DNA of 40,490 nt from an uncultured Gammaproteobacteria bacterium. Its GTDB lineage: Bacteria > Patescibacteriota > Patescibacteriia > Magasanikbacterales > GWA2-37-8. Positions 3,799 to 36,561 of this stretch are shown in pieces. Where the stretch lies: NCBI GenBank assembly GCA_964535515.1, contig CAZHTA010000004.1, forward strand, positions 27,888 through 68,377, in the 5' to 3' direction. The notes below the pieces were generated by a model, which was given only the letters and a program-made list of their open reading frames with translations, did no database searches and was not told where the DNA came from. The position numbers were made by a program, and so were the translations under genes. The first letter of the stretch is position 1; every line of letters begins with the position of its first letter.

Positions 3799-3823
3799 TT
3801 GGTAAATACTTTTATATATCTGT

Positions 3824-4384
3824 ATGTTTAATGAAAGTGAGGCTAAATATATTTTAGACTTGGCACGTCGCTCCATTGAGTTTTATTTTAAAAATCAAGA
3901 ATTGTTGGTAGTTAATGAGACGGAAGTACCGGTGGGTAGGTTAAAAGAAAAGTTAGCTTGTTTCGTTACTTTGACAATTGGAGGAGAGTTGCGTGGTTGT
4001 ATTGGTCGCACGGAAGCAACTCAATTTTTATATTTAGATGTTATTGAAAATGCGGCGTTAGCCGCGTTTAATGATCCACGTTTTGCGCCATTGTCTGAGG
4101 AGGAATTAGAAAAGGTTAAGATCGAAGTATCAGTTTTGTCAGTAGCGCAACCGGTAGATTTTACTAACACAGAGGAATTATTAAAAAAGTTACGTCCGGG
4201 CATTGATGGTGTTGTTATTAAACGTGGCAGCCAATGGGCGACATATTTGCCACAAGTTTGGGAGGAGTTACCTGTTAAAGAAAAGTTTTTGAATTCTCTT
4301 TGTGAGAAAGCCGGTCTTCCTTTAGATGATTGGCAAAAAGCGGGTATTGAAGTGTTGGTATATCAAGTTGAGGTGATTGAATAG
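3824..4384 (+). CDS. AMMECR1 domain protein
   Basis: LACFVTLTIGGELRGCIGRTEA and PRFAPLSEEELEKVKIEVSVL are AMMECR1 hallmarks. Confidence 0.85.
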   Translation: MFNESEAKYILDLARRSIEFYFKNQELLVVNETEVPVGRLKEKLACFVTLTIGGELRGCIGRTEATQFLYLDVIENAALAAFNDPRFAPLSEEELEKVKIEVSVLSVAQPVDFTNTEELLKKLRPGIDGVVIKRGSQWATYLPQVWEELPVKEKFLNSLCEKAGLPLDDWQKAGIEVLVYQVEVIE

Positions 4385-7973: not shown

Positions 7974-7974
7974 C

Positions 7975-9411
7975 ATGTTAAATAGCAGCGATTCAAAACA
8001 TATTCGTGAAACTAATTGGTATCGCCAAGGTGGGGCGATTAATTTGTTTTATTGTTTTAGTCCGTTTCAATCTATTCGCGAAACCATTGGTTATGATGGT
8101 TGTATTATGTATCAAGAGGATGCTGTTAATACTGCTTTTTTTGAACGAGACAGAGAGGATAAGTTAGCACTTAAATTTATCCGAGCAAGCGGGGAAGACA
8201 AATATTTGGTGGACAGATGGATAAGCGTTTGGCGTATACGCATATTAAAGTTAAATAAGTTTTTAGATAAAAGTTTTTCTAAACCATTGGAAACGTGGTC
8301 TGATGCGGAGTTGGTTAATTTTTTCCATCGTTATGATCATTTGGCTTTAAGTCATTGGAAGAAGGGTGTTTTGTGTGAATGGACTGACCCTAATGGCTGG
8401 AATATAGTAAAGACGGAGGCTTTAAAATATTGCCCTAATCTTAGTGATGAAGATATTAATCTGTTAACATCACCAGAAAAGTTAACTGTAGTGCAGAAAG
8501 AATTAGTTGATCGGTTGGTTTTAATGAAAAAACAAAAGCAGGGTTTAAGTATTGAGCGCGAGCTTAAGAAACATGTTAGTAAATATTTTTGGATTCGCAA
8601 TAATTGGGCGTTTGTTTATGATTTAAAAGAAAAAGATTTTCAAAAGGTTATTAACAAAGAAATGTTAAAGTTGGAGAAAGTTGAAAGACAAGTGAAAGAA
8701 ATTAATGAATATATACGTGAGATTAAGAAAAAGAAAAAGATTTTAATCAAGAAAAAATCAGTACCACGTAAAGTACAAAATGTTTTTTACTTTTTTACTC
8801 AATTAACCGATTGGCGCGATGAGAGGAAAAAATTTGCTGCTTGTTTGCCAAATCATTATTTATATAAAATATTGAAAGTATTGGCGAAGAGAAATAATAT
8901 TTCTGAGGAGTTGGTTGGTTTATTAATATGGTTTGAAATTAGTGGTTGGAAATTATCTGTAAAAACAATAGATAATTTAAAAAGACGAGGGCAGGGCTGG
9001 ATCTATTATTGTCGTAAAAATAAACAATGCCAACAAGTTTATGGTAGTGAGGCAAAAAAGATTTTTAATGATTTGGTTAAGGCGTTAGATAAAGGTGAAT
9101 TGCGAGGGTTAATAGCAAACAAGGGTGTTGTGATTGGTAAAGCGAAGATTGTGGAAGTACAAGCTGATTTTAGTAAAGTAAAAAAAGGGGATATTATTGT
9201 TGCTAACATGACGCGCCCAGATTATGTACCGATTATGAAATTGGCAGGTGGAATAATTACCAATGAGGGAGGGATTACTTGTCACGCGGCAATTGTTAGT
9301 CGTGAGTTAAATATTCCTTGTATAATTGGGACACAGGTGGCTACGGATGTTTTAAAAGACGGTGATGTTATAGAAGTTGATGCGGATAATGGTGTAATTA
9401 GAAAAAAATAA
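7975..9411 (+). CDS. Swivel-domain paralog 2
   Basis: GDIIVANMTRPDYVPIMKLAGGIITNEGGITCHAAIVSRELNIPCIIGT. N-terminal motif KHVSKYFWIRNNWA. 1-nt gap to the upstream gene. Confidence 0.85.
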   Translation: MLNSSDSKHIRETNWYRQGGAINLFYCFSPFQSIRETIGYDGCIMYQEDAVNTAFFERDREDKLALKFIRASGEDKYLVDRWISVWRIRILKLNKFLDKSFSKPLETWSDAELVNFFHRYDHLALSHWKKGVLCEWTDPNGWNIVKTEALKYCPNLSDEDINLLTSPEKLTVVQKELVDRLVLMKKQKQGLSIERELKKHVSKYFWIRNNWAFVYDLKEKDFQKVINKEMLKLEKVERQVKEINEYIREIKKKKKILIKKKSVPRKVQNVFYFFTQLTDWRDERKKFAACLPNHYLYKILKVLAKRNNISEELVGLLIWFEISGWKLSVKTIDNLKRRGQGWIYYCRKNKQCQQVYGSEAKKIFNDLVKALDKGELRGLIANKGVVIGKAKIVEVQADFSKVKKGDIIVANMTRPDYVPIMKLAGGIITNEGGITCHAAIVSRELNIPCIIGTQVATDVLKDGDVIEVDADNGVIRKK

Positions 9412-9414
9412 TTT

Positions 9415-10890
9415 ATGCAAGATATTAATAGGTTGACTGAGAAAGATTGGTATTTTCAAGGGTTCAATGGTGTCCCAGCTCTTTTGTATGGTCCCGCTTG
9501 GTCTATGGCGCGTGATATGCCAAAATTTTTAGGTTTTGGCTATTCTGTTTGTGTTGAATATTTCACTAAGGATGTTTGTTATTATCTATATTCTTGGGAT
9601 GATTTATATAAAATTCATGATGAATTATTAAAACGTGTTAAACGCGACAAAAATTATTTGCGTTATTTATCAAAATCAGATGAATGTTTATGTAAAGAAG
9701 TGATTAAAGAATATAAAATTTTAGGTGGGAAAGATTGGTGCAGTGCTTCCATAAAAGAATTATTTTCGGGTTGGCGTAAAGCCAATGATTTATATGCGCA
9801 TCTTTTAGGGGTTTCGCATATTGTAGAAGGGTTTAGTTTAACCACAGAAGATCGAATTAGAGCTTTGATTAATGAAGTTTTTCCTAATGATTCCGGAGCT
9901 TTGTCGTTGCTCACTACTCCCAAGACGCATTCTTTTATGTCTATTGAGCACTATGAGTTATGTTTAATAGCTCATGGTGTTAAACGTATTAAATTGGGTA
10001 AGTGTACTGTTGAAAATATTTTGGTTAATAAGGTGATAAATAAAAAAATATGTCTTCATCAGGAGAAATATTATTGGAAATTAAATGGTTATACGTCGGC
10101 TAAGTTTCTAGACGACAAGTATTTTGCCAAAGAAATATGTGGTTTGTTAAACAAGAAAGTTAATTTTGAAAAATTTATTCATGATTTTGAAAATTTGTCC
10201 AAAAGATTAGATGGAAAAAAGAAACTTCTTAAAAAAGTGAAAAATCAAGAATTACTTGATTTATTAAAAATTTCTGATGCGTTGTTTGTGATCCACGATC
10301 GTCGTAAAGAGCATATGACGCAATCAATTACTTATTTGGAATTAATTTTAAGTGAGATTGCTAAGCGATTTAAAATACCTTTATCTGATTTGCACTATAT
10401 TCGTCCGTCAGAGTTAGAAAAGTTACCTAAGATTTGGTCGGAGTTAAAAAAGAGGAAAGAACATAGCATATACATTTTATATCCAGAAGGAGAGATGCCA
10501 GTATTAACTGGTTTAAAAGCAAAAAAATATTTTGAAAAAATTGAAAAGAATAAAAAATTAGATAAGATTTCGGAGATTAAAGGGAATGGTGCGTCGCCAG
10601 GAAAAGTAAGAGGCGTAGTTAAGGTGTGCCGCGGTGAAAAAGAATTAGGTAAAATGAAAGAAGGAGATATTCTCGTGGCGTGTATGACACAGCCTGAATT
10701 TTTACCGGCTTTGAGAAAAGCTAAGGCCGTCATTACTGATGAGGGTGGTTTGACTTGTCATGCTGCGATAGTGGCAAGGGAGTTAGGAATTCCTTGTGTG
10801 ATTGGAACAAAAGTAGCTACTAAAGTTTTAAAAGATGGTGATATGGTAGAAGTTGATGCGGATAATGGTATAATTAGGAGAATAAAATAG
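9415..10890 (+). CDS. Swivel-domain paralog 3
   Basis: GDILVACMTQPEFLPALRKAKAVITDEGGLTCHAAIVARELGIPCVIGT. N-terminal motif HQEKYYWKLNGYT. Confidence 0.85.
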   Translation: MQDINRLTEKDWYFQGFNGVPALLYGPAWSMARDMPKFLGFGYSVCVEYFTKDVCYYLYSWDDLYKIHDELLKRVKRDKNYLRYLSKSDECLCKEVIKEYKILGGKDWCSASIKELFSGWRKANDLYAHLLGVSHIVEGFSLTTEDRIRALINEVFPNDSGALSLLTTPKTHSFMSIEHYELCLIAHGVKRIKLGKCTVENILVNKVINKKICLHQEKYYWKLNGYTSAKFLDDKYFAKEICGLLNKKVNFEKFIHDFENLSKRLDGKKKLLKKVKNQELLDLLKISDALFVIHDRRKEHMTQSITYLELILSEIAKRFKIPLSDLHYIRPSELEKLPKIWSELKKRKEHSIYILYPEGEMPVLTGLKAKKYFEKIEKNKKLDKISEIKGNGASPGKVRGVVKVCRGEKELGKMKEGDILVACMTQPEFLPALRKAKAVITDEGGLTCHAAIVARELGIPCVIGTKVATKVLKDGDMVEVDADNGIIRRIK

Positions 10891-10892
10891 TT

Positions 10893-10926
10893 CTTTAAAA
10901 CACAAGCACCCGACCGAAGTCGAGTG
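10893..10926 (-). terminator. Intrinsic terminator of the island gene
   Basis: The minus strand reads CACTCGAC-TTCG-GTCGGGTG followed by CTTGTGTTTT. It starts 35 nt after the stop codon. Confidence 0.6.
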
Positions 10927-10960
10927 CGTTGTGCACGTTGTTGGGGCCTGCTCCAATGAG

Positions 10961-11452
10961 CTAGGCCAGTCGCGTCGCGGTACCGTCGCCGAGGTGGAGC
11001 TCGTACACGGCGCTGCTCGCAGCCTCGAGCTTGAGGCTCTCGAGCACCGGACGTCCGGCCACGAGGACGACGTCCGGGCTGCCCTCGGCGAGGATCAGCA
11101 TGCCGTACGTTTCCCGCAGGTGCATGAGCGTGGCTTCGCGGGACGGCATTCGGAACCGGTCCAACGTCGTCTGCGCGTTGCAGGCGAGCGCGATGTTCCA
11201 CCCTCCGTTGCCGTTGGGGACGCCCGAGCTGGGGTCACCCAGCATGGGATCGTACCACTCGATCTCCTGGAAGATGTCCAGCGCCTCGGCCGTGTCGATG
11301 TGACGCCGGGCGGTCCCGCAGAAGACTCGACGCTTGTCGGGGAGGGGCAGGTGCGGTACGAGCCGTTCGATCTCGCTTCTTCCTTTGCTCGTGAGACCGG
11401 GGTCCGCACCGGGACCCTTCGAACCGTGGGTGATCAATAGGACTCGCGCCAT
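10961..11452 (-). CDS. SixA/PGAM-like histidine-phosphatase-fold protein (163 aa) with degenerate catalytic motifs; high GC3
   Basis: MARVLLITHGSKGPGADPGLTSKGRSEIERL...RRVFCGTARRHIDTAEAL follows the RHG...LTxxGRxQ...SPxxRAxxTA pattern. It has THG in place of RHG and VLVAGRPV in place of the distal SH motif. AGGAGAA lies 6 nt upstream of the ATG at 11452. The 198-aa track ORF is an upstream extension. Confidence 0.6.
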   Translation of the reverse strand: MARVLLITHGSKGPGADPGLTSKGRSEIERLVPHLPLPDKRRVFCGTARRHIDTAEALDIFQEIEWYDPMLGDPSSGVPNGNGGWNIALACNAQTTLDRFRMPSREATLMHLRETYGMLILAEGSPDVVLVAGRPVLESLKLEAASSAVYELHLGDGTATRLA

Positions 11453-11473
11453 CTCTCGTTCTCCTATGGTTGT

Positions 11474-11488
11474 GCGACACGCTGTCGC
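11474..11488. promoter_or_regulatory. Inverted repeat GCGACA-CGC-TGTCGC in the 5' region of the island gene (operator or hairpin candidate)
   Basis: Perfect 6-bp arms with a 3-nt spacer, about 20 nt upstream of the SD on the minus strand. Confidence 0.3.
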
Positions 11489-11605
11489 TTGGTCCCAAAT
11501 AAACGTGCAGTTTGTTTCAGATAGTGCTCGGATTTGGTTAAATCCAGGCAAAATCATGGTACCAAACGTTTCAGTATAGTATATTTTCGCTGTTTTGTCA
11601 ATATT

Positions 11606-13087
11606 ATGTACAAATCACCTCAATTTAAATCAAATAAACTAGAACTTACGGTTAGTCGTCCGTATGTTCCTTTGTGTGCTAACTATTTTTTCCAAAGCTA
11701 CAGTAATCCAGAATATTTTAAGAAGTTTTATAAAATTAACTTTTTTACTCGTTTATTAGCAATTAATGCGGATTTTTATTATGGCCTAGAAGCAAAAGAT
11801 TTTGGCTATGTTCTTTTTGGACAAGCGGCAAAGTATGGTAGTCATAGTAAAATTAAAAAGAAAAATCTTAAGGGTATTTTGCACATTTTTGATCGGACCT
11901 ATAAATTTGGTGATTCGTTATTGGAATTTACTTTGCAAGTTAAGAAAACAGATTTTTCTGAATATTCAAAGAAGCAATTATTAGAGGTGTTTGGAAAATT
12001 TTCGAAAGATTATGTTGTTTTTTGTACTGCTTTATTGGGTATGAATATGCAGTATGTTGTCGAAGATGGTTTGCGTGAGTTTCTACGAAGTGATAAAAAC
12101 GCAGAAGAGGAGCTTGCGATTTTGACTTTTCCTGATAAACAAAATGTTCTTGTTCAAGAACTAATGGACTTATTGCGTTTACGAATTAAATTAGAAAAAG
12201 TTGGTGTTAAGAATTTGGAAAAATGTAAGACCAAGGAGCTTGGCTTACTAAAGAAGCATGTTGATAAGTACGGTTGGATCAATGCTCGTGGTGCCATTAA
12301 TGAAGGATGGACGGTAAAAGAGGTTTTTGATCGGGCGATGGCAGAAAAGAATTGTGCTAAACGTTTGGTTGAGATAGTTAAGAATCAAAAAGAGCATCAA
12401 AAACAAGTTCGAGATATATTTAAAACAAAAAAACCTAATGCGGAAATTAGGGATTTAATAAAAATCGCCAAAGAGCTGGTATATTTTCGCACCTACCGTA
12501 CAGATTATCTTAATTGGATGTTTTTTAATATTCGTCCTTTATTAAATGCGTTGGCAGGTAAGATGGGTATTAGTTTTGAGGATATTATATATTATCTACC
12601 AAAAGAAATCATGACTAAGAAAAAAGTGTCTGAAAAAGAGGTTGTTCGTCGCAAGGAAGGTTACGCGATATTGTTAGCTAAACCTTATGAGGTATTATTC
12701 TCCTCTGATCCTAAGAAAATATTGGAATGGAAAAAGAAACATACTGAGGTATTAGGTGGCAATGTTACGGAAGTTAAGGGTATGTCTGCATACAAAGGTA
12801 TTGTTCGTGGTAAGGCTGTGTTGGTATTGAAAAAGGCTGATATGGTAAAGGTTAAGTCGGGGGATGTTTTAATCACTTTTATGACTACGCCAGATATGGT
12901 ATCGGTTATGCAGAAAGCAATAGCGTTTGTTACTGATGAGGGTGGTATTACATGCCATGCGGCGATTGTAGCACGGGAGATGAAGAGACCGTGTGTAACA
13001 GGGACCAAAATTGCTACTAAGGTTTTTAAAGATGGCGATGAAGTAGAAGTGGATGCGAATACTGGTGTAGTGAAAATTATTAAATAA
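11606..13087 (+). CDS. Swivel-domain paralog 4 (ATG 11606 preferred over the TTG 11534 of the track)
   Basis: GDVLITFMTTPDMVSVMQKAIAFVTDEGGITCHAAIVAREMKRPCVTGT. N-terminal motif KHVDKYGWINARGA. The 5' extension of the track ORF runs into island/intergenic sequence. Confidence 0.85.
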   Translation: MYKSPQFKSNKLELTVSRPYVPLCANYFFQSYSNPEYFKKFYKINFFTRLLAINADFYYGLEAKDFGYVLFGQAAKYGSHSKIKKKNLKGILHIFDRTYKFGDSLLEFTLQVKKTDFSEYSKKQLLEVFGKFSKDYVVFCTALLGMNMQYVVEDGLREFLRSDKNAEEELAILTFPDKQNVLVQELMDLLRLRIKLEKVGVKNLEKCKTKELGLLKKHVDKYGWINARGAINEGWTVKEVFDRAMAEKNCAKRLVEIVKNQKEHQKQVRDIFKTKKPNAEIRDLIKIAKELVYFRTYRTDYLNWMFFNIRPLLNALAGKMGISFEDIIYYLPKEIMTKKKVSEKEVVRRKEGYAILLAKPYEVLFSSDPKKILEWKKKHTEVLGGNVTEVKGMSAYKGIVRGKAVLVLKKADMVKVKSGDVLITFMTTPDMVSVMQKAIAFVTDEGGITCHAAIVAREMKRPCVTGTKIATKVFKDGDEVEVDANTGVVKIIK

Positions 13088-13117
13088 TTTGTTTATATAT
13101 TTTTAACTTATAAAAAT

Positions 13118-14200
13118 ATGGAAAGAGGACCAAGTTTAAGGCCAGAGGATATGCTAGTTGGCAATGATGGGGTGGATCAGAAAGCGCGAGGTGTAATTGA
13201 ATCACGTGATAGCGCCGTAGCTCATAATATTGAGCGTGGGGAAGGCTTATCATCTTCGCGTGTTGTTTTGGAGTTTATGCGTCATGGTAAAAAAGAAAAA
13301 GCGCCAGGCAAAGATGATCGTGATATACGCATTGTTCCGGAAGCGCGTGTGGCAGCAACGGAAAAAGGTAAAAAATTAGGAGCGCAAGCTGAGGTGTCGG
13401 TTGTTTATGCTAGTCCGCGTAACCGTACTCAGGAATCTGCTGGCCGAGTTGCTTTGGGTAATCAATCAGAAATTACTGCGGATATGAGCTTAGAGGATAT
13501 TATGGTTAAAACAATGGAGCATAATGCTATTTTAATGCCTGATCAGTTAGAACGTTTGCGCGAGCTGTTGTCTCATCCAATGGAAGAATTAAATGCTGAA
13601 GAAAAGAAGGAGCTAAAACTTTTGTCGAGTAAAGGTAAAAAAATCATGGTTGATGAACGTTTGGATTTTACTGATGAAACAGAGGAGGGTCTAAAAGCTT
13701 TTATGGCTGGTCGTTATTTAGATCATGCTGTAAAGGATAGTGATCAGTTGGCAATTGCAAAGCATGATACTAAATTATCTACCTATACTCGTTCGGCTGG
13801 TAAGATCGCGGAGATTGTTTCTAAATATATTCAGGTGGGTAAAAATTTTAACAAAAGAGTAAGTGTTGATCCAGAGAAATATAAAAAATTCGGTAATCAA
13901 TTAGAAAGATATTTTGGTTCACACCAAGGTGTTGTAGAATGTTTTTTGTTGAAAGCAATCGAGAAAATAAAAGGTGTAAAAGAGCGTGATGAGATTTTGG
14001 CTTTGATGCCAGCAGGTTTTAAAGAGTTACAAGGTGTAAGGATTGGCATTGAGAACAATGGCAAAGGAGAACAGGTGATTGTTTTAGATGCCGAAGTTGA
14101 AGGAAGAAAGATTAATTTAGAATTAACCCCAGAGATTTTAATGGGTATGGTTAGTGATAGAGATGTGCTGGATGAACAATGTAAGAGTAGTGTGGAGTAA
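13118..14200 (+). CDS. Histidine phosphatase superfamily (PGAM-like) protein with a large internal insertion
   Basis: LEFMRHGKK (RHG), VVYASPRNRTQESA and the distal YFGSHQGVVE (SH motif). About 150 extra residues lie between the two half-sites. Native low GC. Confidence 0.7.
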   Translation: MERGPSLRPEDMLVGNDGVDQKARGVIESRDSAVAHNIERGEGLSSSRVVLEFMRHGKKEKAPGKDDRDIRIVPEARVAATEKGKKLGAQAEVSVVYASPRNRTQESAGRVALGNQSEITADMSLEDIMVKTMEHNAILMPDQLERLRELLSHPMEELNAEEKKELKLLSSKGKKIMVDERLDFTDETEEGLKAFMAGRYLDHAVKDSDQLAIAKHDTKLSTYTRSAGKIAEIVSKYIQVGKNFNKRVSVDPEKYKKFGNQLERYFGSHQGVVECFLLKAIEKIKGVKERDEILALMPAGFKELQGVRIGIENNGKGEQVIVLDAEVEGRKINLELTPEILMGMVSDRDVLDEQCKSSVE

Positions 14201-14210
14201 TATTGTTGTT

Positions 14211-15281
14211 ATGTCTATCGTTCCTGATAAATTTTTAAAAGGAGAGTGTTGGCTGAAAGATTGGGCGGGTCAGTGGGATCTTTTTATTTGTTTTTATTCA
14301 GGAGAAGATTATACCACCTTACTTAAAAAGTGGTTGGGTATTAATTTTGATAAATGTCTTTTTATTTATCACGATGGGTTTGTGGAGTGTTATTTAAATA
14401 AAAGATGTTTAGATATTTTGGGTAGAGAGATTAACGCGAGGGTTAAAGAGGATGTTTTGTGGATTGATAGGAATTGTAAAGATCTTAAAAAGAATACACA
14501 AATTTTCCTAAAATATTTTGCTGAGCATAAAAACGATTTGGTTGCGGAAGAGACATTGAAGAAGTTTTTGCAGTTGGTTAGCAATTGTTTTGCTGCGTAT
14601 ATTTCTAATAAATTAGCATTTGATTATTTGTCAGCAGATATATTAAAGAAAAAATGGAATGTGATGGAATCGGCACGTGTATACTCAGAATCGGTTTATA
14701 CGGCGTGTATAGAGTTTGTTCACAATTGGGGTAAACAAATGGCGAAAAAAGTTAAGATACCAAAGGATCTCTTTCTTTGTTGTTCGTTAAATGAAATTGA
14801 AACTTATTATCGATCGGGTAGATTACCAAGTGTTAGCGAGTTAAAGCGACGGTATTCGTTTAATGTGATACTTTCACAGAATGGTCAGAGTTTTTTATTG
14901 ACTGGCTCAGAGGCTAAGGCTGTTGAGAAAAAGATTATTAGTTCATTTGGCGACAGTAAAACCATTAAAGGCACCTGTGCCTATCCGGGGAAAGTAACGG
15001 GGCGGGTTAGAATTGTTTTTGATCCTAAAAAGATAAAAGATTTTAAAGATGGGGATATCTTGGTAACACCGATGACGCGACCGGAGTATCTTTCTCTAGT
15101 TAAAAAATCCGCTGGTTTTATTACTGATGCTGGCGGTATGCTTTCTCACGCCGCTATTACAGCGCGCGAGTTAAAGAAGCCGTGCGTGGTAGGTACCCAA
15201 GTGGCTACGCGTTTGTTAAAAAATGGAGATGAGGTGGAAGTGGATGCCAACAAAGGGATAGTTAATGTGATTAAAAGATAA
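14211..15281 (+). CDS. Swivel-domain paralog 5 (short, 356 aa; ATG 14211 preferred)
   Basis: GDILVTPMTRPEYLSLVKKSAGFITDAGGMLSHAAITARELKKPCVVGT. Confidence 0.85.
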   Translation: MSIVPDKFLKGECWLKDWAGQWDLFICFYSGEDYTTLLKKWLGINFDKCLFIYHDGFVECYLNKRCLDILGREINARVKEDVLWIDRNCKDLKKNTQIFLKYFAEHKNDLVAEETLKKFLQLVSNCFAAYISNKLAFDYLSADILKKKWNVMESARVYSESVYTACIEFVHNWGKQMAKKVKIPKDLFLCCSLNEIETYYRSGRLPSVSELKRRYSFNVILSQNGQSFLLTGSEAKAVEKKIISSFGDSKTIKGTCAYPGKVTGRVRIVFDPKKIKDFKDGDILVTPMTRPEYLSLVKKSAGFITDAGGMLSHAAITARELKKPCVVGTQVATRLLKNGDEVEVDANKGIVNVIKR

Positions 15282-15288
15282 TGATTTT

Positions 15289-16839
15289 ATGAAGGTGCTA
15301 AAAACTTTTCCTTTGGCTTTGACCAAAAAAACTGCTAGTCAGTTTAATAAGGCGTTTCATGCCAAGTTATTTACTTTGTTTGCTTCTTCGATGAGTGAAC
15401 TAATGCAGTTGGCTAAGGATTTTCCTGTGCATTATAAACATTGTTTGTGTTTTATTAAAGATGATTTAGGCCAGTGGTTTTTGGGCGCAGATAGCATCGA
15501 AAGAGTTAGGCGGTATATCATAAAAAAAGCTGATGAGGATTTTTCTCAGATAAATAAATATTATTTACGTTGGCAGAAAGACTGGGGTAAGTTTTTAATA
15601 TTAAACAGAAAATTAATTAGTTCAGATTTTAGTTCTTTGACTGACAAGCGGTTGTATAAAGTTTTTGATGAGTTTTATGATCTATATTTAAAAGTAGGTG
15701 GTGTGGCATATATTAGTGATGCCTTTATGTCCTCTGGGGAAAAAGATTGGCTGCAAGAGGTTATAAACCAAGAATTAAAACGCATTTATAAAGATATTGA
15801 AAAAGTAAAAAGGGTGGCGGCGGATTTGATTTCGCCAGTTCATCTTTCTTTTGTTTTGGAAGAAGAACTTGAATTATTAAAACTAGCTCCGGCGTTTATT
15901 AATCTTACTGGTAAATTGGTGGGTTTTAATAAGTTGTCCGCTAAACAACTAGCGCAGCTGGAACGTCATGCTGACAAATATTATTGGATGAATAATAACT
16001 ACTATAACGTAGAATTTTACGATGCATTTTCAGTATATACACATCTGGTCAATCTTTTAGATGGTTTGCAACAAGAAAAACGTAGCCTTAGTGATTTTTT
16101 GGCGGAGAGACAGCGCGAATTAAAGGAAAATAAAACGAGGCGTGAGGGGTTGATTAGTGATATTAAGCTACCAAAAAAGATTAAGAGCTTAATTCGGGTA
16201 GCTAATTTGTTTAGCAAGTGGAAAGACGTTCGGAAAAGTGGTGTGTATCGTGGCATGGCAATTTTTGATAAATTTTTGGGCGAGATAGCAATGCGTACTG
16301 GTTATACAAAAAAGGAAATTACTTTTTTAGTTTTTCCGGAGTTCAAGGATTTATTGTTAAATAGAAAAGATTTTCGGTTGGTTATAAAAGATCGTCAAAA
16401 GCAAATATTTTTTGTGGTGCGTCCGCACGACTATCTTTTGGTTAGCGGTCAAAAGGCGGATAAATATTTTGCTTGTTTGTCCGAAGGACTCAATGCTGAG
16501 ATGAAAGAATTCAAAGGAGCAGTGGCCTCCAAAGGAATCGCGCGCGGGGTGGTGCGGATGATAAGGAAAACAGAAGAGATGAAAGACTTTAAAAAAGGTG
16601 AAATTTTAGTTACCAACAATACTACACCAGAGTTTGTTCCAATCATGAAAAAGGCCGCAGCGATCATTACTGAACAAGGTGGTATAACCTCACATGCTGC
16701 TGTAGTTTCGCGTGAATTGCGTAAGCCGTGTATTATTGGTGTTAAAGGTATTACAACCATTTTAAAAACAGGGGTAGAGGTTGAAGTAGATGCTAATCAT
16801 GGTATAATTAAGATTATTAATAAAAGTTTAAAGAAATAA
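15289..16839 (+). CDS. Swivel-domain paralog 6
   Basis: GEILVTNNTTPEFVPIMKKAAAIITEQGGITSHAAVVSRELRKPCIIGV. N-terminal motif RHADKYYWMNNNYY. Confidence 0.85.
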   Translation: MKVLKTFPLALTKKTASQFNKAFHAKLFTLFASSMSELMQLAKDFPVHYKHCLCFIKDDLGQWFLGADSIERVRRYIIKKADEDFSQINKYYLRWQKDWGKFLILNRKLISSDFSSLTDKRLYKVFDEFYDLYLKVGGVAYISDAFMSSGEKDWLQEVINQELKRIYKDIEKVKRVAADLISPVHLSFVLEEELELLKLAPAFINLTGKLVGFNKLSAKQLAQLERHADKYYWMNNNYYNVEFYDAFSVYTHLVNLLDGLQQEKRSLSDFLAERQRELKENKTRREGLISDIKLPKKIKSLIRVANLFSKWKDVRKSGVYRGMAIFDKFLGEIAMRTGYTKKEITFLVFPEFKDLLLNRKDFRLVIKDRQKQIFFVVRPHDYLLVSGQKADKYFACLSEGLNAEMKEFKGAVASKGIARGVVRMIRKTEEMKDFKKGEILVTNNTTPEFVPIMKKAAAIITEQGGITSHAAVVSRELRKPCIIGVKGITTILKTGVEVEVDANHGIIKIINKSLKK

Positions 16840-16840
16840 T

Positions 16841-17827
16841 ATGCCAAAAGTTTCTCATATTAAGTTTTTTAAGAATATCTCTAAAAGTGATGTTGATATT
16901 GCTGGTGGTAAGGGTGCGTCTTTAGGTGAGATGACACAAGCCAAGATTCCAGTACCAAATGGTTTTGTGGTTTTAGCCGCAGCCTTTGATCGTTTTTTAG
17001 AAGAGACACAATTAAAAGAGGAAATTGTGGCACGGCTAAAGGAAGTTAACCCAGAAGATACTAATTCGGTTGATCGTATTAGTGCGGTTATTCGTGATGC
17101 GATTCATGATCGGTCAATGCCTAAAGATTTGCAGAAAGAAATTTTAGGAGCATTTACTAAGTTAGATGCTAAATTTGTGGCTGTACGTTCATCGGCTACA
17201 GCAGAGGACTCATCTGTTGCTAGCTGGGCAGGGGAGCTGGAGAGTTATTTAAATACGAGTAAAAAAGATTTGATTGAACGGGTGCGTCGTTGTTGGTCGT
17301 CGTTGTTTACTCCGCGTGCTATTTTTTATCGTCATGAAAAAGGGTTAATTGACCATTATGTCTCAGTAGCGGTAGTAGTACAAAAAATGGTGCAGTCAGA
17401 AATTTCTGGCATTGCTTTTACTGTTCATCCAGTAACGGAAGATTATGACCAGATGATTATTGAAGCGGGGTATGGTTTGGGTGAAGCGATTGTCTCTGGA
17501 CAAATTACACCTGATAGCTATGTGATTAGCAAGGGTAGTATGGAGATTATGGATACTTATGTTAGTTCACAAGCTCGTCAGTTAATTCGTAAGAAATCTG
17601 CTAAGAGCAAAGGGGATGAAGAAAACACTTCAAATGAGTGGGTAAATTTAGGTAAAAAAGGTGAAAAACAAAAGGTCGACAACAAAACGGTCTTGGCCCT
17701 GGCCAAAGTATTTAAACGGATTGAGGACCATTACAAGTTTCCGTGTGATATCGAATGGGCTATGGAAAAGAAAAAAATATATATTACCCAAAGTCGTCCG
17801 ATTACTACTTTAAAGAAGAAAAAGTAG
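16841..17827 (+). CDS. Stand-alone PpsA/PPDK N-terminal ATP-grasp (nucleotide-binding) domain protein
   Basis: Collinear with E. coli PpsA residues about 1-345: GGKGASLGEM, IPVPNGFVV, VAVRSSATAEDS..SWAGE, AVVVQKMV, GIAFTVHP, EAGYGLGEAIVSG and DIEWAMEKKKIYITQSRPIT. It ends there, with no His or TIM-barrel domain. 1-nt gap to paralog 6. Confidence 0.9.
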   Translation: MPKVSHIKFFKNISKSDVDIAGGKGASLGEMTQAKIPVPNGFVVLAAAFDRFLEETQLKEEIVARLKEVNPEDTNSVDRISAVIRDAIHDRSMPKDLQKEILGAFTKLDAKFVAVRSSATAEDSSVASWAGELESYLNTSKKDLIERVRRCWSSLFTPRAIFYRHEKGLIDHYVSVAVVVQKMVQSEISGIAFTVHPVTEDYDQMIIEAGYGLGEAIVSGQITPDSYVISKGSMEIMDTYVSSQARQLIRKKSAKSKGDEENTSNEWVNLGKKGEKQKVDNKTVLALAKVFKRIEDHYKFPCDIEWAMEKKKIYITQSRPITTLKKKK

Positions 17828-19149: not shown

Positions 19150-19479
19150 ATGGCTTTTGGTACTGACAGACAAATGTTTGATGTTGACTTGACCTGTGCT
19201 AAGTGCGGGTCTCACATCGCTCAGTTGCCTTTTCAACCATCTGGTGATCGACCGGTTTACTGTTCTGACTGCAACCGTGCTTTCCGCCAGAGTCGTCCTG
19301 ATGATCGTGGTAGCCGTGGTGGTAGTTTTGGTGGACGCTCAGATGGCCCTCGCCAGATGTACAGCGTTAACCTAAGCTGCGCTTCCTGCGGAACTGCGAT
19401 TACCCAACTACCGTTCCAGCCAACTGGTGATAAGCCAGTTTACTGCCGGGACTGTATGCAGGCTCGTCGTAATGGTTAA
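19150..19479 (+). CDS. Tandem CxxC-x18-CxxC zinc-ribbon protein with an RGG-like linker (ATG 19150 preferred over TTG 19126)
   Basis: Two repeats, CAKCGSHIAQLPFQPSGDRPVYCSDC and CASCGTAITQLPFQPTGDKPVYCRDC, joined by DDRGSRGGSFGGRSDG. G+C is visibly higher than in the neighbours. Confidence 0.75.
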   Translation: MAFGTDRQMFDVDLTCAKCGSHIAQLPFQPSGDRPVYCSDCNRAFRQSRPDDRGSRGGSFGGRSDGPRQMYSVNLSCASCGTAITQLPFQPTGDKPVYCRDCMQARRNG

Positions 19480-23809: not shown

Positions 23810-24277
23810 ATGGTAAAAAGATTTATTTGTTATCTTTGGAAAAAGAAGTTTCTACAATATTCTATTGTTGGAAGCTCTGCTTTTGTTTTAGATTTTGCTT
23901 CGTTGATTATTTTGAAAGAAGTTTTTAATTTTAATCCGATTGTGGCAGTAGCAGTGGATCAGATTATTACAATTAATTATGTTTTCTTTTTAAATAAGTA
24001 TTGGTCATTTAAATCTAACGGTCAAACAACTAAGCAGTTAGTTAAATTTTTAGTTTTGATGCTTTGGAATTATGTTTTCGCTGTTTTTTGGATGTGGTTG
24101 TTCACAAGTGTAGTTTCTTTTTCTATAGAAGTAAGTTTGTTTGGCAAAACACGTGATCTTTGGTATTTGGTAGTTAGACTAGCGAATATCCTTTTGGCCA
24201 TCAGTTGGAACTTTTTAATTTACAAATATTGGGTGTACAAGGCAGAAGTTTTGGAAAACAAAAATCCGACCGCATAA
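23810..24277 (+). CDS. GtrA-family membrane protein
   Basis: Four TM helices. FLQYSIVGSSAFVLDFASLIIL and FFLNKYWSFKS match the GtrA-like pattern. Confidence 0.6.
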   Translation: MVKRFICYLWKKKFLQYSIVGSSAFVLDFASLIILKEVFNFNPIVAVAVDQIITINYVFFLNKYWSFKSNGQTTKQLVKFLVLMLWNYVFAVFWMWLFTSVVSFSIEVSLFGKTRDLWYLVVRLANILLAISWNFLIYKYWVYKAEVLENKNPTA

Positions 24278-24331
24278 AACCTCCTGCTTTGTCTCCAAAT
24301 ATTTAGAGATAAAACAGTAGGGCGGTCGGAT
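24253..24331 (-). terminator. Possible terminator for the island-2 ORF: 10-bp inverted repeat with a large loop and a U-rich tail on the minus strand
   Basis: ATCCGACCGC (24264-24273, inside the 3' end of the GtrA-like CDS) pairs with GCGGTCGGAT (24322-24331, the island edge). The 48-nt loop holds an inner palindrome, GTCTCCAAATATTTAGAGAT (24291-24310). The minus strand continues TTTTGTTTTCC. Confidence 0.3.
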
Positions 24332-24641
24332 ATGTATCCTTTGTCCCACTGCGCTCTGGATCGAACGATCCTGGGCGGGGGGGCACGGGCCTCTTCAGTC
24401 GTTGCGCTCGATCGGCTCGCCGTCGGACTCGGTGCGTACGCGATGGTGTGCGCCAGCCCAGGTGCGAAGAACGCCGCGACTGCCTTCGGTGCCACGAAGA
24501 TGTCGCACAGACGGCGGGGTCGAGACGTCTTTGGCTTTGGCCGCACGTTCGAGGATCTCTTCCCAGCAGTCCGCGCACGGAGCCGTTTCCGAACAGTCCG
24601 GATTGTTGCAAGGCATTATGATGCCCTTTCAAAAGTTGAAG
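24316..24641. other. High-GC compositional island 2
   Basis: 42/60 G+C counted at 24421-24480. The 8-mer GATAAAAC occurs on both sides (24308-24315 and 24642-24649). Confidence 0.8.
24395..24616 (-). CDS. Small (73 aa) Cys-rich hypothetical protein, C-x4-C-x5-C-x2-C at the N-terminus; high GC
   Basis: MPCNNPDCSETAPCADCWEEILERAAKAKD... This is the frame with G/C-rich third positions and a protein-like composition. AAAGGG lies 8 nt upstream of the ATG. The other overlapping frames look like high-GC shadows. Confidence 0.5.
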   Translation of the reverse strand: MPCNNPDCSETAPCADCWEEILERAAKAKDVSTPPSVRHLRGTEGSRGVLRTWAGAHHRVRTESDGEPIERND

Positions 24642-24727
24642 GATAAAACTATTAAACATTAAAAAAAGTGTTTAGTCAAGAACTGTGGGTTAATTAGAAA
24701 AATACTAAATTTATGCATATTTAAGCC

Positions 24728-24757
24728 AAAAAACGGCAAAAATAGTCGAATTTTGCC
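24728..24757 (-). terminator. Textbook intrinsic terminator oriented on the minus strand with no obvious gene to terminate
   Basis: The minus strand reads GGCAAAA-ttcgactat-TTTTGCC-G-TTTTTT. Confidence 0.45.
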
Positions 24758-24763
24758 TAACTA

Positions 24764-24792
24764 TTGACAAAAAAAGGGTTTTATATTAAAAT
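24764..24792 (+). promoter_or_regulatory. Promoter TTGACA-17 nt-TAAAAT upstream of infA
   Basis: ttgacaaaaaaagggttttatattaaaat. The TTG start of the track ORF is the -35 hexamer itself. Confidence 0.6.
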
Positions 24793-24811
24793 ATTGAATG
24801 TAATTTTTTAC

Positions 24812-25030: not shown

Positions 25031-25057
25031 GGACAAATTAAAATTCAACAAACTAAT

Positions 25058-25148
25058 CAACCAGTGCGGTGTAGTTTGGCTCAGTAATCTGATTTCGATC
25101 AGACGAAAAGAGTCGGACGCGGATATCGCGGCAGTGGTTGGTGTTTTT
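25058..25148 (+). promoter_or_regulatory. Candidate structured RNA (three-way junction + U-tract) between infA and rpmJ: attenuator, terminator or ribosomal-protein leader
   Basis: The outer stem is CAACCAGTGC/GCAGTGGTTG. Hairpin 1 is GGCTC...TCTGAT-TTCG-ATCAGA...GAGTC. Hairpin 2 is CGCGG-ATA-TCGCG. The structure is followed by GTGTTTTTGC. Confidence 0.4.
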
Positions 25149-25211
25149 GCATTATACACAATTTATTAAGCTATTTAATTAATATACACTTTAGTATTTA
25201 AGTAATCTACT

Positions 25212-33468: not shown

Positions 33469-34830
33469 ATGGAACAGGTGAATATTAAAAGATACAAAGA
33501 TTCTTTTAAGTGGCAGTTTGGTGCTTATCCTTTTTTTACTTCGGTTTTTACTAAATGCGCTGATTTGAAAATTAAAAAGAAACATCATCTTTGTTTTAAT
33601 GAATATATTAGTAATTTTGAAAATGATTCAGTAACAGCGTTTATTCCATGGGAAGTTTTTGAAACACCTGGTAGGAAGATTATTAAAAAAATACTAGCAG
33701 GGGACAAGTATTATTATAACGAAATAAAAAGAACACATAGTGCAGTTAAAAAAGCTATTGCAGCATGTTTGTTGGCGCGGTCTAAAAATGTTAATGAATT
33801 GGGTAGGTGGTGGAGATTAACTCAGGATGCGCTATCGGATGTTAGTCGTGTATTATATTCATTTGATTTTACTTTTGATTTATTTTTAAATGAATTAAGA
33901 GCGAAGGATCAGGATTTGTTTGTGGTGTTGTTAGAGAATATAAAAACAAAAGAAAAATCTTTTCTTGAGGAAGCCTCGGCTAAGTTGTTAAAATTAAAAT
34001 CAGAAAGCAGTGATTTTAAAAAGGTCTATATTAAATTTGTTAAAGAGTTTGGGTGGTTTCAAAATAGTTATAGAGGAGTTTTTAAATTCGATGAGACTTG
34101 GTTGAAACAGTATTTAAAAAATATTTTGCAGCCAAATAAAAAGGACAAAGCAAAGGCGCCGGGCGTTGTTCCGTCTAAATACAAGTTATTAGTTAAGTTG
34201 GCGAAAGAAACGATAGTGTTTAGAGATGACAAGAAAAAATTATTACTAGTCGCAGCAGATGTGATGGATAGTTGGCTAAGGAGAGTTTGCAAAGAACACG
34301 GTTGGTCTTTTGAAGCAATGCGTTGGTTAACAGTAGATGAGATATTGGATGTAATAGAAAATGGTAATAAAAAGAATTTGGTGTTGGCAGAAAAATATTA
34401 CAAAGCCAAGCGACGCATTGGTGTTATGGTCAGTACAGGTTATTTAGATATTAGTAAAAAAGATTGGGACAAAATATATTTGTTGTACTTTACTTCTAAG
34501 AGTGGTTTGGTAAAAGGATTGGCAGCTAACAAAGGTGTCTATAGAGGAACGGTGCGAGTAATTTTAGATCCAGTGAAGGATGCAAAAAAGTTTTATCCAG
34601 GAGATGTTTTAGTCGCCTCGATGACTCGTCCGGAGTATATTAGTCTAATGAGTAAGGCGGGTGCTTTTGTGACTGATGAAGGTGGAATATCTTGTCATGC
34701 TGCTATTGTGGCTAGAGAAATGGGGAAGCCGTGTATTATTGGCACCAGAAATGCTACTAAGATGTTAAAGGATGGTGATTTTGTGGAGGTGGATGCTAAT
34801 ATTGGAATTATTAAAGTCGTTAAAAATTAA
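33469..34830 (+). CDS. Swivel-domain paralog 7
   Basis: GDVLVASMTRPEYISLMSKAGAFVTDEGGISCHAAIVAREMGKPCIIGT. N-terminal motif FVKEFGWFQNSYRG. Confidence 0.85.
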   Translation: MEQVNIKRYKDSFKWQFGAYPFFTSVFTKCADLKIKKKHHLCFNEYISNFENDSVTAFIPWEVFETPGRKIIKKILAGDKYYYNEIKRTHSAVKKAIAACLLARSKNVNELGRWWRLTQDALSDVSRVLYSFDFTFDLFLNELRAKDQDLFVVLLENIKTKEKSFLEEASAKLLKLKSESSDFKKVYIKFVKEFGWFQNSYRGVFKFDETWLKQYLKNILQPNKKDKAKAPGVVPSKYKLLVKLAKETIVFRDDKKKLLLVAADVMDSWLRRVCKEHGWSFEAMRWLTVDEILDVIENGNKKNLVLAEKYYKAKRRIGVMVSTGYLDISKKDWDKIYLLYFTSKSGLVKGLAANKGVYRGTVRVILDPVKDAKKFYPGDVLVASMTRPEYISLMSKAGAFVTDEGGISCHAAIVAREMGKPCIIGTRNATKMLKDGDFVEVDANIGIIKVVKN

Positions 34831-34843
34831 TTTACGATTGTAA

Positions 34844-35461
34844 ATGATTATGAATAAGTCTTTTATCTTTGATTGGTCTGGGACGCTAAGTGACAATTTC
34901 AACTGCTTTTGTAAAGTGTGTGATTTGATGTTTCCGGAATTAGGGCGAGAAAAAATTACTCCTGAAGAAATTAGGAAGGAGTTTACTTTACCGTATATGT
35001 CTTTTTGGAATAAATATTTTCCGGAATTATCCCAAGAAAAACAATGTGGAATGTATGTAAAATATATTCATCAGGTTGGTAATCCGAATCTTTATCCGGG
35101 TGTAAAAGAAGTAATTACAGCATTGCATGGCGGTGGTCATAAGATATTTATTGCAAGTTCCGATCCAGAATCAAAGATAACAGAAGAAATTGAAGCTTCA
35201 GGTTTAAAGGATTTTTTAAGTGGGTATTATTTTGAATTACAAGATAAGACTGAAAAGATTATGGAGCTGGTTAATAATACGCCTTTAGATATTAACAGTA
35301 CTTACTATATTGGTGATACTTTTGGTGATGTTGAGATGGGTAAAAAAGCGGGTGTTAAAACAGTTGGTATTTCTTGGGGGTTTCAGAGTCGTGAGGGTTT
35401 GGCTCTGAGTAAACCGGATTTTTTAATTGATGATATTTTAGAGATTAAAAATATTATATAA
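34844..35461 (+). CDS. HAD-superfamily hydrolase-fold protein with atypical motif I (DWSGT)
   Basis: Motif I is FIFDWSGTL, with Ser at Asp+2. Also IASSD (motif II-like) and YIGDTFGDVEMGKKAGV (motif IV). Confidence 0.75.
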   Translation: MIMNKSFIFDWSGTLSDNFNCFCKVCDLMFPELGREKITPEEIRKEFTLPYMSFWNKYFPELSQEKQCGMYVKYIHQVGNPNLYPGVKEVITALHGGGHKIFIASSDPESKITEEIEASGLKDFLSGYYFELQDKTEKIMELVNNTPLDINSTYYIGDTFGDVEMGKKAGVKTVGISWGFQSREGLALSKPDFLIDDILEIKNII

Positions 35462-35466
35462 ATTTT

Positions 35467-36561
35467 GTGCGTTCAGTATTGAATACAATTAAAAAATTTG
35501 ATTTAGAAGTGGCCACTAAAAGACCTCTACCTTTGTTTACCTTGAGTTGTATAGGGAAAACCTATGTGGATGTATTAAAAAAGAAATATTTTAAGTGTAA
35601 TTATGAGGCTGTAGCTGGTTGGGGTGATAAAAATGGTTTTGTATCTTTACTTAATGAAGAGGCGGTGGTGGATACAATGGCAAATAAGTTAAAAAAAGAA
35701 AAAGATATAAAAAAGAAGTTTGTGGTACCTCTACAAACCAATTTTGTAAAGTTTAAGAAAGAATTTAATGTATTGTTGTCTAATTTGGGAAGAAAGAATG
35801 CGTTGTTAAGTTTAAAACTTTTGTCTAAGTATTATATTGACTATCTCGTGATCTTAGGTAGCTTGAATTGTCTTTGGCGATATATTGGTGATAACGCCGT
35901 AACAAAGTGTAACAAAAAAGACATTGAATATTTTGCCAAAGCCAGGGGAAATGTTGCAGAAATATATCCGCAGATGGAAGGGGCTCTTTCTTTGTTGTGT
36001 AACAAAATTGGTGAGCAGCAAAAATTTGACGGCGATTTGTTGCGATATTTTACTCGCGCAGAGTTAGATAATTTTTTAGACAAAAAGGAATTGTTAAATT
36101 TGGAAAAGCAACAAAAGTTAAAGAAGAGGAAAGTTGGATATTTTTATATTTACACTAAAAATACTGAAGAAGTTGTAACTGAGGACAACGTTTTAATAAA
36201 AAAGATCAAACAGTTTGCACTTAAAAATAGCCAGCCCAAGTCAGGATTAAAAGGTACAGTTGTTTATCTAGGCAAGGTAGAAGCAAAGGTGTTTAATTTT
36301 GATCAAAATTTTAAGAAAGCACCTGCTGGTAAATTTATTTTGGTAACACACATGACTCATCCTAAAGATTTAACGTTGATTAAAAAATCACTAGGGATAA
36401 TTACTGATGAAGGGGGAGTGTTGTGTCATGCGGCGATTATGGCGCGTGAACTCAAGAAGCCGTGTATAATTGGTACAAAGGTGGCTACGCAATTATTAAA
36501 AACCGGTATGAGTGTTGAATTAGATTGTTACAAAGGAACTATTAAAATAATTAAAAAATAA
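35467..36561 (+). CDS. Swivel-domain paralog 8 (GTG start; short, 364 aa)
   Basis: GKFILVTHMTHPKDLTLIKKSLGIITDEGGVLCHAAIMARELKKPCIIGT. Confidence 0.8.
   Translation: MRSVLNTIKKFDLEVATKRPLPLFTLSCIGKTYVDVLKKKYFKCNYEAVAGWGDKNGFVSLLNEEAVVDTMANKLKKEKDIKKKFVVPLQTNFVKFKKEFNVLLSNLGRKNALLSLKLLSKYYIDYLVILGSLNCLWRYIGDNAVTKCNKKDIEYFAKARGNVAEIYPQMEGALSLLCNKIGEQQKFDGDLLRYFTRAELDNFLDKKELLNLEKQQKLKKRKVGYFYIYTKNTEEVVTEDNVLIKKIKQFALKNSQPKSGLKGTVVYLGKVEAKVFNFDQNFKKAPAGKFILVTHMTHPKDLTLIKKSLGIITDEGGVLCHAAIMARELKKPCIIGTKVATQLLKTGMSVELDCYKGTIKIIKK

Follow-up and report, generated by a model that had tools for sequence, protein, structure and literature searches.

Genomes of the candidate phyla radiation (CPR, Patescibacteria) are tiny and streamlined, and most of their accessory genes are unexplained. 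Diversity-generating retroelements (DGRs) are common in them, and downstream of DGR variable regions sit an initiation of mutagenic homing (IMH) sequence and a hairpin. Other described systems with which the locus presented here can be compared are ORFan accessory genes in horizontally acquired islets, small Cys4 zinc proteins and hypervariable immunity or recognition loci. In this study, we have analysed a stretch of 40,490 nucleotides (the window; 37.4% G+C) from a Candidatus Magasanikbacteria-like genome, whose AlaRS has its nearest relatives in Magasanikbacteria and Patescibacteria metagenome-assembled genomes (MAGs). Between its GtrA-like gene and infA lies a G+C-rich island carrying, on the minus strand, an open reading frame (ORF) of 73 amino acids (aa), ORF73. 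Comparison of five assemblies makes it quite probable that the island belongs to a real, self-contained, protein-coding accessory gene, specific to a Magasanikbacteria-like (CPR/Patescibacteria) subclade and located at a fixed site; the existence and the architecture of this gene are well supported.

Filled and empty sites in relatives

The AlaRS-GtrA-infA-rpmJ-rpsM synteny is kept in relatives (related loci are designated here by L numbers). The initial annotation had taken the island for extra DNA of foreign appearance, in agreement with what the relatives show: empty GtrA-infA spacers, of ~60–250 bp, AT-rich and without a G+C-rich segment, as against ~535 bp in the window, are found in L002, L003, L004, L023, L081, L083, L082/L005, L104 and others, and the compositional signature of the island is unlike that of native DNA. 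L081 and L083 are close to the window, with AlaRS 88–91%, infA 95% and rpsM 94–98% identical. The alignment with L081, L083 and L082 departs after the YKYWVYK codons of GtrA (~24247) and is resumed at ~24721, at the TAAGCCAAAAAAC...TTGACA block of the infA promoter. The lineage-specific stretch, hereafter the module (24247–24720, minus strand), is therefore ~470 bp long, wider than the G+C-rich core; it has no counterpart in the empty-site relatives, and the same block is present in L102, L103, L105 and L107. On its left it reaches into the end of the GtrA-like coding sequence (23810–24277, plus strand, 155 aa; Pfam GtrA_DPMS_TM, E=8.5e-16), and its right boundary is the native infA promoter (TTGACA-17-TAAAAT, 24764–24792, plus strand), which matches the consensus at 11 of 12 positions and is kept in filled and empty relatives.

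The five filled assemblies, with the island at the same position, are the window itself, L102 (Logan SRR16110226), L103 (JGI 3300037810), L105 (Logan DRR438493) and L107 (Logan ERR14064755), which come from different sequencing runs and pipelines; L102 was located by exact-match look-up of infA and the other three through GtrA homologues. L102 aligns with the window at 92.3% identity over 5.4 kb, in a single alignment running through the island. Across the five, the GtrA proteins are 66–96% identical (66–77% for the L103 and L105 lineages), and the GtrA tail ...NKNPTA is exclusive to filled-site proteins (P0003, P0008, P0016), the tails at empty sites being all different. In trees of GtrA and of infA, filled sites alternate with empty ones: the sister group of window/L102, L081/L104, lacks the module, whereas L103 and L105, which branch farther away, have it. 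This distribution implies repeated loss or lateral gain of the module.

The G+C-rich core spans 24332–24620 (289 bp, 63.3% G+C), with a peak of 0.68 in a 200-bp window. The initial description of ~70% G+C over ~310 bp was thus right about the island and slightly high in its figures, and its count of 42 G+C in the 60 positions 24421–24480 is exact. Spikes of at least 0.20 above background over 200 bp are rare, with just four among the low-GC related loci scanned. In all alleles the excess (62–69% G+C) is restricted to the ORF and its 3' untranslated region (UTR), and G+C at third codon positions (GC3) is 0.64–0.78 in the ORF alleles versus ~0.3 in native genes. No tandem repeats were found. A six-frame depletion of stop codons in the window allele (2 versus 10.7) was dropped as a signal, as L102 and L103 do not reproduce it. 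Such an extreme compositional contrast within a MAG could also come from an assembly chimera or contaminant read-through, an explanation to which we give virtually no probability: the five independent assemblies have the same junctions, with conserved junction sequences, and the module is precisely intergenic and carries its own regulatory signals. The filled sites in independent assemblies therefore rule out a chimera for practical purposes.

ORF73 and its regulatory signals

ORF73 (24395–24616, minus strand) encodes a Cys-rich, net acidic protein with the pattern C3-x4-C8-x5-C14-x2-C17, as initially annotated, and is hypervariable. The five ORF alleles measure 73–81 aa and begin with ATG or GTG preceded by a Shine-Dalgarno (SD) sequence, and the sense frame is open in all of them. 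In gapless blocks, third codon positions hold a disproportionate share of the differences. The ratio of nonsynonymous to synonymous divergence (dN/dS) is 0.27 for the ORF in the window-L102 pair, with 0.15 for the region of the Cys motif; for the window and L107 it is 0.45, being lowest in the centre (0.24), somewhat higher at the N-terminus (0.35) and reaching 0.9 in the tail. C3, C8, C14 and C17 are retained in the window, L107 and L102 with synonymous TGT/TGC changes, and in the window-L102 pair Pro, Cys, Thr, Ala and Arg residues are retained in the same manner. The insertions and deletions (indels) among these three alleles, of 12, 9, 3 and 3 nt, are all multiples of three. A low ratio of nonsynonymous to synonymous differences (pN/pS) is limited to the sense frame and to the mirror frame that shares its wobble positions, the other frames giving 1.1–2.2; the mirror frame has two stops in four of the five alleles. 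This frame-specific selection, together with the openness of the frame in all alleles, indicates that the reading frame first proposed is the correct one. We conclude from these comparisons that the ORF is in all likelihood translated, under purifying selection at its N-terminus and centre and with an acidic tail that evolves nearly neutrally. In AT-rich genomes, annotation systematically overlooks small G+C-rich genes or gets them wrong. In this regard, a plus-strand 'gene' of 97 aa that JGI reports at 3184–3477 of L103 was rejected as the exact-antisense shadow frame, a phase whose pN/pS is 1.1–2.2 in the window, L102 and L107.

The elements around the ORF follow one another on the minus strand in the same order in all five alleles: TTGAC(T/C)-17-TTTAAT, SD, start codon, ORF, a G/C-rich tract, a short hairpin, a long hairpin and a U-tract. 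The promoter-like pair of the window (24651–24679) consists of TTGACT (24679–24674) and TTTAAT (24656–24651); both hexamers are kept in every allele, and the bases of the spacer vary, its length being exactly 17 nt throughout. From TTTAAT to the SD there are 28–34 nt, and from the SD to the ATG or GTG 6–9 nt. The SD-like GAAAGGG of the window (24624–24630) lies 7 nt upstream of the ATG, and purine-rich variants (GAAAGGG, GAAAGG, AAGAGGG, AAGGAGG) occupy the equivalent position across the alleles. In the 3' UTR, the short hairpin (24351–24378; core GGATC-GAAC-GATCC, with the G/C-rich tract between it and the stop codon) is conserved in all alleles with the consensus GGATC-GAAY-GATCC, shows compensatory changes at pairs 19/26 and 13/32, and in L105 takes the compensatory form GGCAGC/GCGCC. 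The long hairpin (24264–24331, 68 nt) has an invariant 10-bp outer stem, an internal loop and an inner stem; its outer arms, ATCCGACCGC (24264) and GCGGTCGGAT (24322), are identical in all alleles, and the inner-stem pairs 81/96 and 82/95 are altered on both sides. The module also contains an invariant 17-mer, CAGTAGGGCGGTCGGAT.

The outer arms of the long hairpin are the 10-bp inverted repeat that had been suggested as a terminator, and it is indeed oriented as the terminator of the minus-strand ORF. The hairpin (-36.3 kcal/mol) is far more stable than shuffled sequences (z = -7.0 on the minus strand, -6.3 on the plus strand), and on the minus strand it is followed by UUUUUGUUUU, the combination of a stable hairpin and a U-tract by which Rho-independent terminators are recognised; the U-tract (UUUUGUUUU on the minus strand, 24255–24263) comes directly after the hairpin and is nearly invariant in four alleles. 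The long hairpin would thus be the intrinsic terminator of the minus-strand unit, possibly with a bidirectional role. The U-tract and the 3' arm of this terminator, read on the opposite strand, encode the end of GtrA (ENKNPTA*), and the structure is therefore common to the two convergent genes. No further occurrence of the long-hairpin motif came up in IMG/VR, in 106 loci or in the rest of the window. At the empty site of L082 (4510–4565; also in L005 and L084) GtrA is followed by a different hairpin (TTGTCATCCCGAGCG...CGGTCGGGATGACAA) and a T-run; the core of its arms is similar to ATCCGACCGC/GCGGTCGGAT, and it may be a remnant or an ancestral GtrA terminator. The assignments of promoter-like element and putative terminator are based on conservation and geometry. 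All together, these signals suggest a model in which the gene would be transcribed from its own promoter-like element on the minus strand, translated from the conserved SD and start codon into a cytoplasmic protein of 73–81 aa, and terminated at the long hairpin and U-tract, overlapping the 3' end of the convergent GtrA gene.

A direct repeat of 8 nt, GATAAAAC, is present at 24308 and 24642 and had been put forward as a possible target-site duplication, with the caution that it might be due to chance. The caution was justified: when two native 60-bp windows separated by 350 bp were drawn at random, 10.7% of the trials gave a shared 8-mer (P~0.11), the repeat is absent in L102, L103 and L105, and its left copy lies within the stem of the long hairpin, so that it is not a target-site duplication.

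Searches for RNA genes and for protein relatives were negative. Rfam gave no match at gathering score in the whole window, and chance-level matches at E<=10 in 24100–24800; ARAGORN found neither a tRNA nor a tmRNA. The core folds no better than its dinucleotide shuffles on either strand (z = -0.45 and -0.75) and not significantly in any other allele (z from +0.28 to -2.46), and conservation of structure across alleles is limited to the two 3' hairpins; a known structured RNA was rejected on these grounds. In the case of the protein, a word-indexed search of ~5.8 billion proteins gave no homologue of ORF73, and exhaustive phmmer gave none at E<=0.001 among 1.84 billion cluster representatives. 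No allele belongs to a family of Pfam, NCBIfam, PHROGs or PADLOC, a profile of four allele sequences has no match in the PDB, and tblastn of ORF73 against plasmids gave no relative. By blastn the island has compositional matches alone in phages and plasmids (E >= 0.3). Neither the peptide nor the segment thus leads to a donor or a family, and the initial idea of a protein of phage or plasmid type finds no relative of that kind for either of the two G+C-rich islands of the window. The one IMG/VR match, L101, was rejected: the search pattern itself had seeded it, and it falls in the C-terminus of an unrelated protein of 197 aa. No comparable locus was found in the literature.

Several observations weigh against the interpretation of the module as a protein-coding gene of this kind. 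Flat codon-phase G+C with a high value at the second position (GC2) is typical of spurious ORFs in G+C-rich DNA, and ORF73 has 0.66/0.58/0.68, flat and with an unusually high GC2 (0.68/0.47/0.83 in the ORF of island 1, described below). Gene callers gave no ORF in the three Logan contigs (three of four runs) and called the antisense shadow frame in the fourth; ORF73 and the frames 24303–24659 (minus) and 24332–24646 (plus) are all absent from the protein collection. L103 and L105 align to the window allele through short motifs alone (pairwise E 0.05–0.08), and the homology of the five ORFs is therefore partly inferred from position. The -10 hexamer TTTAAT has T instead of the canonical A at position 2, and a consensus scan called neither a promoter nor a terminator at the module, the former because of this T and the latter because stem and loop exceed the limits of the scan. 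None of the searches above provides a homologue, domain or structure that would back metal binding or any function, and the single-sequence AlphaFold model is poor (mean pLDDT 59), too low for a fold search. Finally, the interpretation leaves the persistence of the G+C richness without explanation.

Some of these points would be expected if the G+C-rich core were non-coding, a small RNA or a fast-turnover spacer between hairpins, with the ORF as a by-product of G+C richness. At 63–69% G+C long open frames are expected in several phases, and the RNA or DNA hairpins are the most conserved parts of the module; together with the codon-phase profile and the near silence of the gene callers, this gives the non-coding alternative some ground. 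We nevertheless consider it improbable, given that purifying selection is specific to one frame, that four of four ORF indels are in frame, that start codon and SD are kept in five alleles and that Cys residues are preserved through synonymous changes. Neither the folding of the core nor Rfam lends support to an RNA.

Allele divergence and the origin of the module

Divergence is distributed very unevenly along the module. In the window-L102 comparison the infA promoter is the most similar part (identity 0.98), followed by the hairpin (0.87), the 3' UTR (0.80) and the 5' region (0.79), and the ORF has just 0.51; across alleles the regulatory flanks are 80–100% identical versus 23–60% nucleotide identity for the ORF, and the regulatory elements are more conserved than the adjacent core gene. 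The dN of the ORF is 0.21–0.41, versus 0.003–0.019 in neighbouring genes. These comparisons show strong purifying selection on the regulatory parts of the module and an ORF evolving some 10–50 times faster than its neighbours. The five alleles form three groups: the window, L107 and L102 have the motifs MPCxxPxCxxTxPCAxCW and HLRxxEG in common, L103 and L105 have CVRRxxGAC in common, with RHL..EG additionally in L103, and the similarity of the remaining allele pairs is not significant. L107 is a mosaic. Its informative sites side with L102 in the two flanks and over some of the Cys-motif region, but in the ORF core and near the start codon they agree with the window; the dS of GtrA (0.43 for L102-L107 versus 0.70 for window-L107) agrees with the flanks. 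Allelic exchange by homologous recombination is therefore directly shown. A step in dS is also seen across the module between the window and L102 (22666–27682), from 0.66–0.72 in AlaRS and GtrA to 0.09–0.23 in infA, rpsM, rpsK, rpsD and rpoA, which could be either a recombination breakpoint or codon-usage constraint in the ribosomal genes. From the diversity, mosaicism and patchy presence of the alleles we infer diversifying or frequency-dependent selection, as in proteins of conflict and recognition (immunity-like or inhibitor-like).

A variable segment that coincides with the ORF, bracketed by near-invariant elements and diverging far above its flanks, might suggest targeted diversification or cassette exchange (DGR-like, integron-like or by another site-specific system) guided by the conserved flanking structures. 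The likeness to DGR variable regions lies in a hypervariable coding segment with a G/C-rich tract and a small hairpin (4-nt loop) just 3' of it, an arrangement that recalls the IMH and hairpin of those elements. However, no reverse transcriptase (RT), integrase or transposase is found among the 40 proteins of the window, nor a copy of a template repeat in the 40 kb, and the alleles differ by indels and by all base types rather than at restricted positions. The hairpin arms ATCCGACCGC/GCGGTCGGAT contain no GTTRRRY/RYYYAAC core sites, the dS of the ORF between the window and L107 (0.48) is not above that of GtrA (0.70), and ordinary homologous recombination explains the L107 mosaic. We regard targeted diversification as highly improbable. 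An integron cassette with its attC site was rejected, there being no integrase and the hairpin being conserved between different 'cassettes', unlike attC. So was a miniature inverted-repeat transposable element or insertion sequence: just one of its two ends has an inverted repeat, the duplication is of the kind expected by chance, and there is a single copy in the window and 106 loci.

The module is the second of two G+C-rich patches in the window, and, as initially noticed, up to 38.1 kb the two hold the sole plausible genes on the minus strand. Island 1 (10906–11601, minus strand) is a G+C-rich unit with a promoter (TTGACA-17-TATACT, 11601–11573; 11/12 match), the SD AGGAGA, a 163-aa ORF (10961–11452) and a canonical terminator (10927–10906), promoter and terminator being both called by the consensus scan. 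The codon-position G+C of its ORF, given above, is strongly periodic. The protein has weak His_Phos_1 matches (SixA/PhoE-type), with the usual RHG motif reading THG; no close homologue was detected in 5.8 billion proteins, the phage and plasmid searches were negative, and exact look-ups of rpsM, rpmJ, rpsK and the zinc-finger gene gave nothing on island 1 in relatives. The surroundings contain eight paralogous genes ending in a PEP-utilizers mobile (phosphohistidine) domain (6519–16839 and 33469–36561), near which are a separate PPDK_N gene (16841–17827) and a native His_Phos_1 gene (13118–14200); island 1 lies inside this array and adjoins the native His_Phos_1 gene. A phosphohistidine phosphatase-like gene would be functionally coherent in such a place. 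As a well-formed unit in this setting, island 1 therefore looks integrated, not accidental.

All alleles of the module and island 1 have a dinucleotide signature in common (TA 0.25–0.55, CC/GG 0.67–0.89, GA/TC 1.16–1.39, CG mostly >1.2). The dinucleotide distance delta* of the islands from native DNA is 0.20–0.32, at or beyond the native 95th percentile (0.22), and that between islands is 0.07–0.18, within same-source sampling noise in a test that is weak at these lengths. This fits a common foreign 'style' of both islands; of the suggestion that they come from the same high-G+C source, the likeness of signatures has held, and a donor was found for neither.

The initial annotation went further and read the module as a recent, unameliorated horizontal insertion from a high-G+C donor. 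Its sharp G+C boundaries, its absence from close relatives, the signature in common with island 1 (TA and CC/GG depleted, GA/TC and CG enriched) and a further G+C-richer minus-strand ORF in the same block in L096 speak for such an event. Against it, the site is identical in lineages whose GtrA proteins are just 66–77% identical and whose ORFs are beyond alignment, which makes the insertion old or repeated. There is no GC3 excess of the kind typical for a gene from a high-G+C donor, the promoter-like element and terminator are native-like in composition and conserved, no donor homologue was found in 5.8 billion proteins, 1.84 billion representatives, plasmids or phages, and the window has no integrase, transposase, tRNA or real target-site duplication. 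As alleles that can no longer be aligned, at one site in five assemblies, all have 62–69% G+C, the argument from 'unameliorated' to recent fails, and we assign recent insertion a rather small probability. Either the composition is maintained or the site is refilled repeatedly. For the lineage-specific gene that we favour, a single, ancient entry into the lineage from a G+C-rich source is probably the origin, and its composition would now be maintained by some force other than recency.

Lineage-specific genes are inserted at more than one junction of the AlaRS-GtrA-infA block, which is an insertion hotspot. L001 has a 1271-aa gene without Pfam match between GtrA and infA (8478–12293), and L104 (1036–1950), as well as L081, a 304-aa gene without Pfam match between AlaRS and GtrA. 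In L096, between AlaRS and GtrA, a minus-strand ORF of 118 aa (3540–3930; SD AGGAGGG, no Pfam match) has 55–63% G+C in a 38% genome. G+C-rich, reverse-oriented accessory genes may be a recurring feature of the block. A broader proposal, which we advance tentatively and hold to be rather unlikely, is that CPR bacteria have in the module a locus dedicated to diversification or conflict, encoding a small metal-binding protein with alleles made hyperdiverse by frequency-dependent selection or a hairpin-guided mechanism and with actively maintained G+C; the process behind it, which places G+C-rich, reverse-oriented genes in core operon blocks, would also have produced island 1 and the L096 gene. 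The G+C richness of such a locus could be kept, for example, if conversion were biased at a recombination hotspot, or if sequences were captured again and again from the gene pool of a G+C-rich host or partner.

Other features of the window are of a different nature. The infA-rpmJ spacer (25040–25150) is G+C-richer and palindrome-rich (ACCAGTGCGG...CGCGGCAGTGGTTGGTG), has no Rfam match at gathering score, and may provide the ribosomal-protein operon with a structured leader or attenuator. The gene at 19150–19479 (50% G+C), whose product of 109 aa carries two zinc fingers of treble-clef type (Pfam zf_Tbcl_2, E=7e-29), is the source of a third, milder G+C spike. At 4408–6441 a homologue of the TrwB/VirD4-like type IV coupling-protein ATPases stands amid housekeeping genes, with no further conjugation genes seen in the window.

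Possible function and relation to known systems

The allele proteins have 4–6 Cys in their first 30 residues, 1–6 His and 11–13 Asp+Glu, and no signal peptide by sequence inspection. A zinc-binding regulator was among the products initially suggested; the Cys4 motif is kept in three alleles and all five are Cys-rich at the N-terminus, with a different spacing in L103 and L105, and no family gives a match. The N-terminal Cys cluster would bind a metal ion, most likely in a single Zn(Cys)4 site, while the centre with the RHL..EG motif appears moderately constrained and the acidic C-terminal tail would be disordered and nearly neutral. Our best guess, held with low confidence, is that the product is a small metal-binding factor, of binding or inhibitor type, under diversifying selection.

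What occupies this fixed site in a CPR subclade thus appears to be a new small-gene module, hypervariable and rich in G+C. A gene undetected by standard callers and by all the homology resources tried nonetheless looks real, expressed and selected once five assemblies are compared. It unites three rarely combined properties: regulatory elements more conserved than the adjacent core gene, a 10–50-fold protein rate with mosaic alleles, and an excess of 25–30 points of G+C that does not decay. G+C-rich patches in AT-rich MAGs should neither be dismissed as contamination nor automatically read as recent transfer, and should a mechanism underlie the lasting G+C richness, this locus would offer a tractable system in which to study it.

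Among known systems, ORFan accessory genes in horizontally acquired islets resemble the module in their atypical composition, their absence from close relatives, their lack of detectable homologues and their position, here a spacer between genes in a conserved syntenic block where other accessory genes are inserted as well (L001, L081/L104, L096). Unlike them, the module is only ~470 bp long, has no mobility genes, has flanks better conserved than the neighbouring core gene and has not been ameliorated despite the deep divergence of its alleles. In DGRs, besides the RT and template repeat that the module lacks and the position-restricted, indel-free variation that it does not follow, it is the C-terminal region of a lectin-fold protein that varies, whereas here the whole small protein does. 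Cys4 zinc-knuckle or zinc-ribbon proteins and bacterial metallothionein-like proteins are similar in size (~75 aa), with 4–6 Cys in the first 30 residues, extra His and an acidic remainder; in contrast to them, ORF73 matches no zinc finger in Pfam, NCBIfam or the PDB, and its Cys spacing is not kept in L103 and L105. In the case of hypervariable loci, such as those for bacteriocin or polymorphic-toxin immunity and surface or recognition genes, the module differs in having no adjacent cognate toxin, secretion signal or partner gene, and in a dN/dS below 1 wherever measurable, so that positive selection is not demonstrated. With these loci it shares conserved flanks around divergent alleles, a genealogy discordant with the flanks (L107), patchy presence and a dN 10–50 times that of its neighbours.

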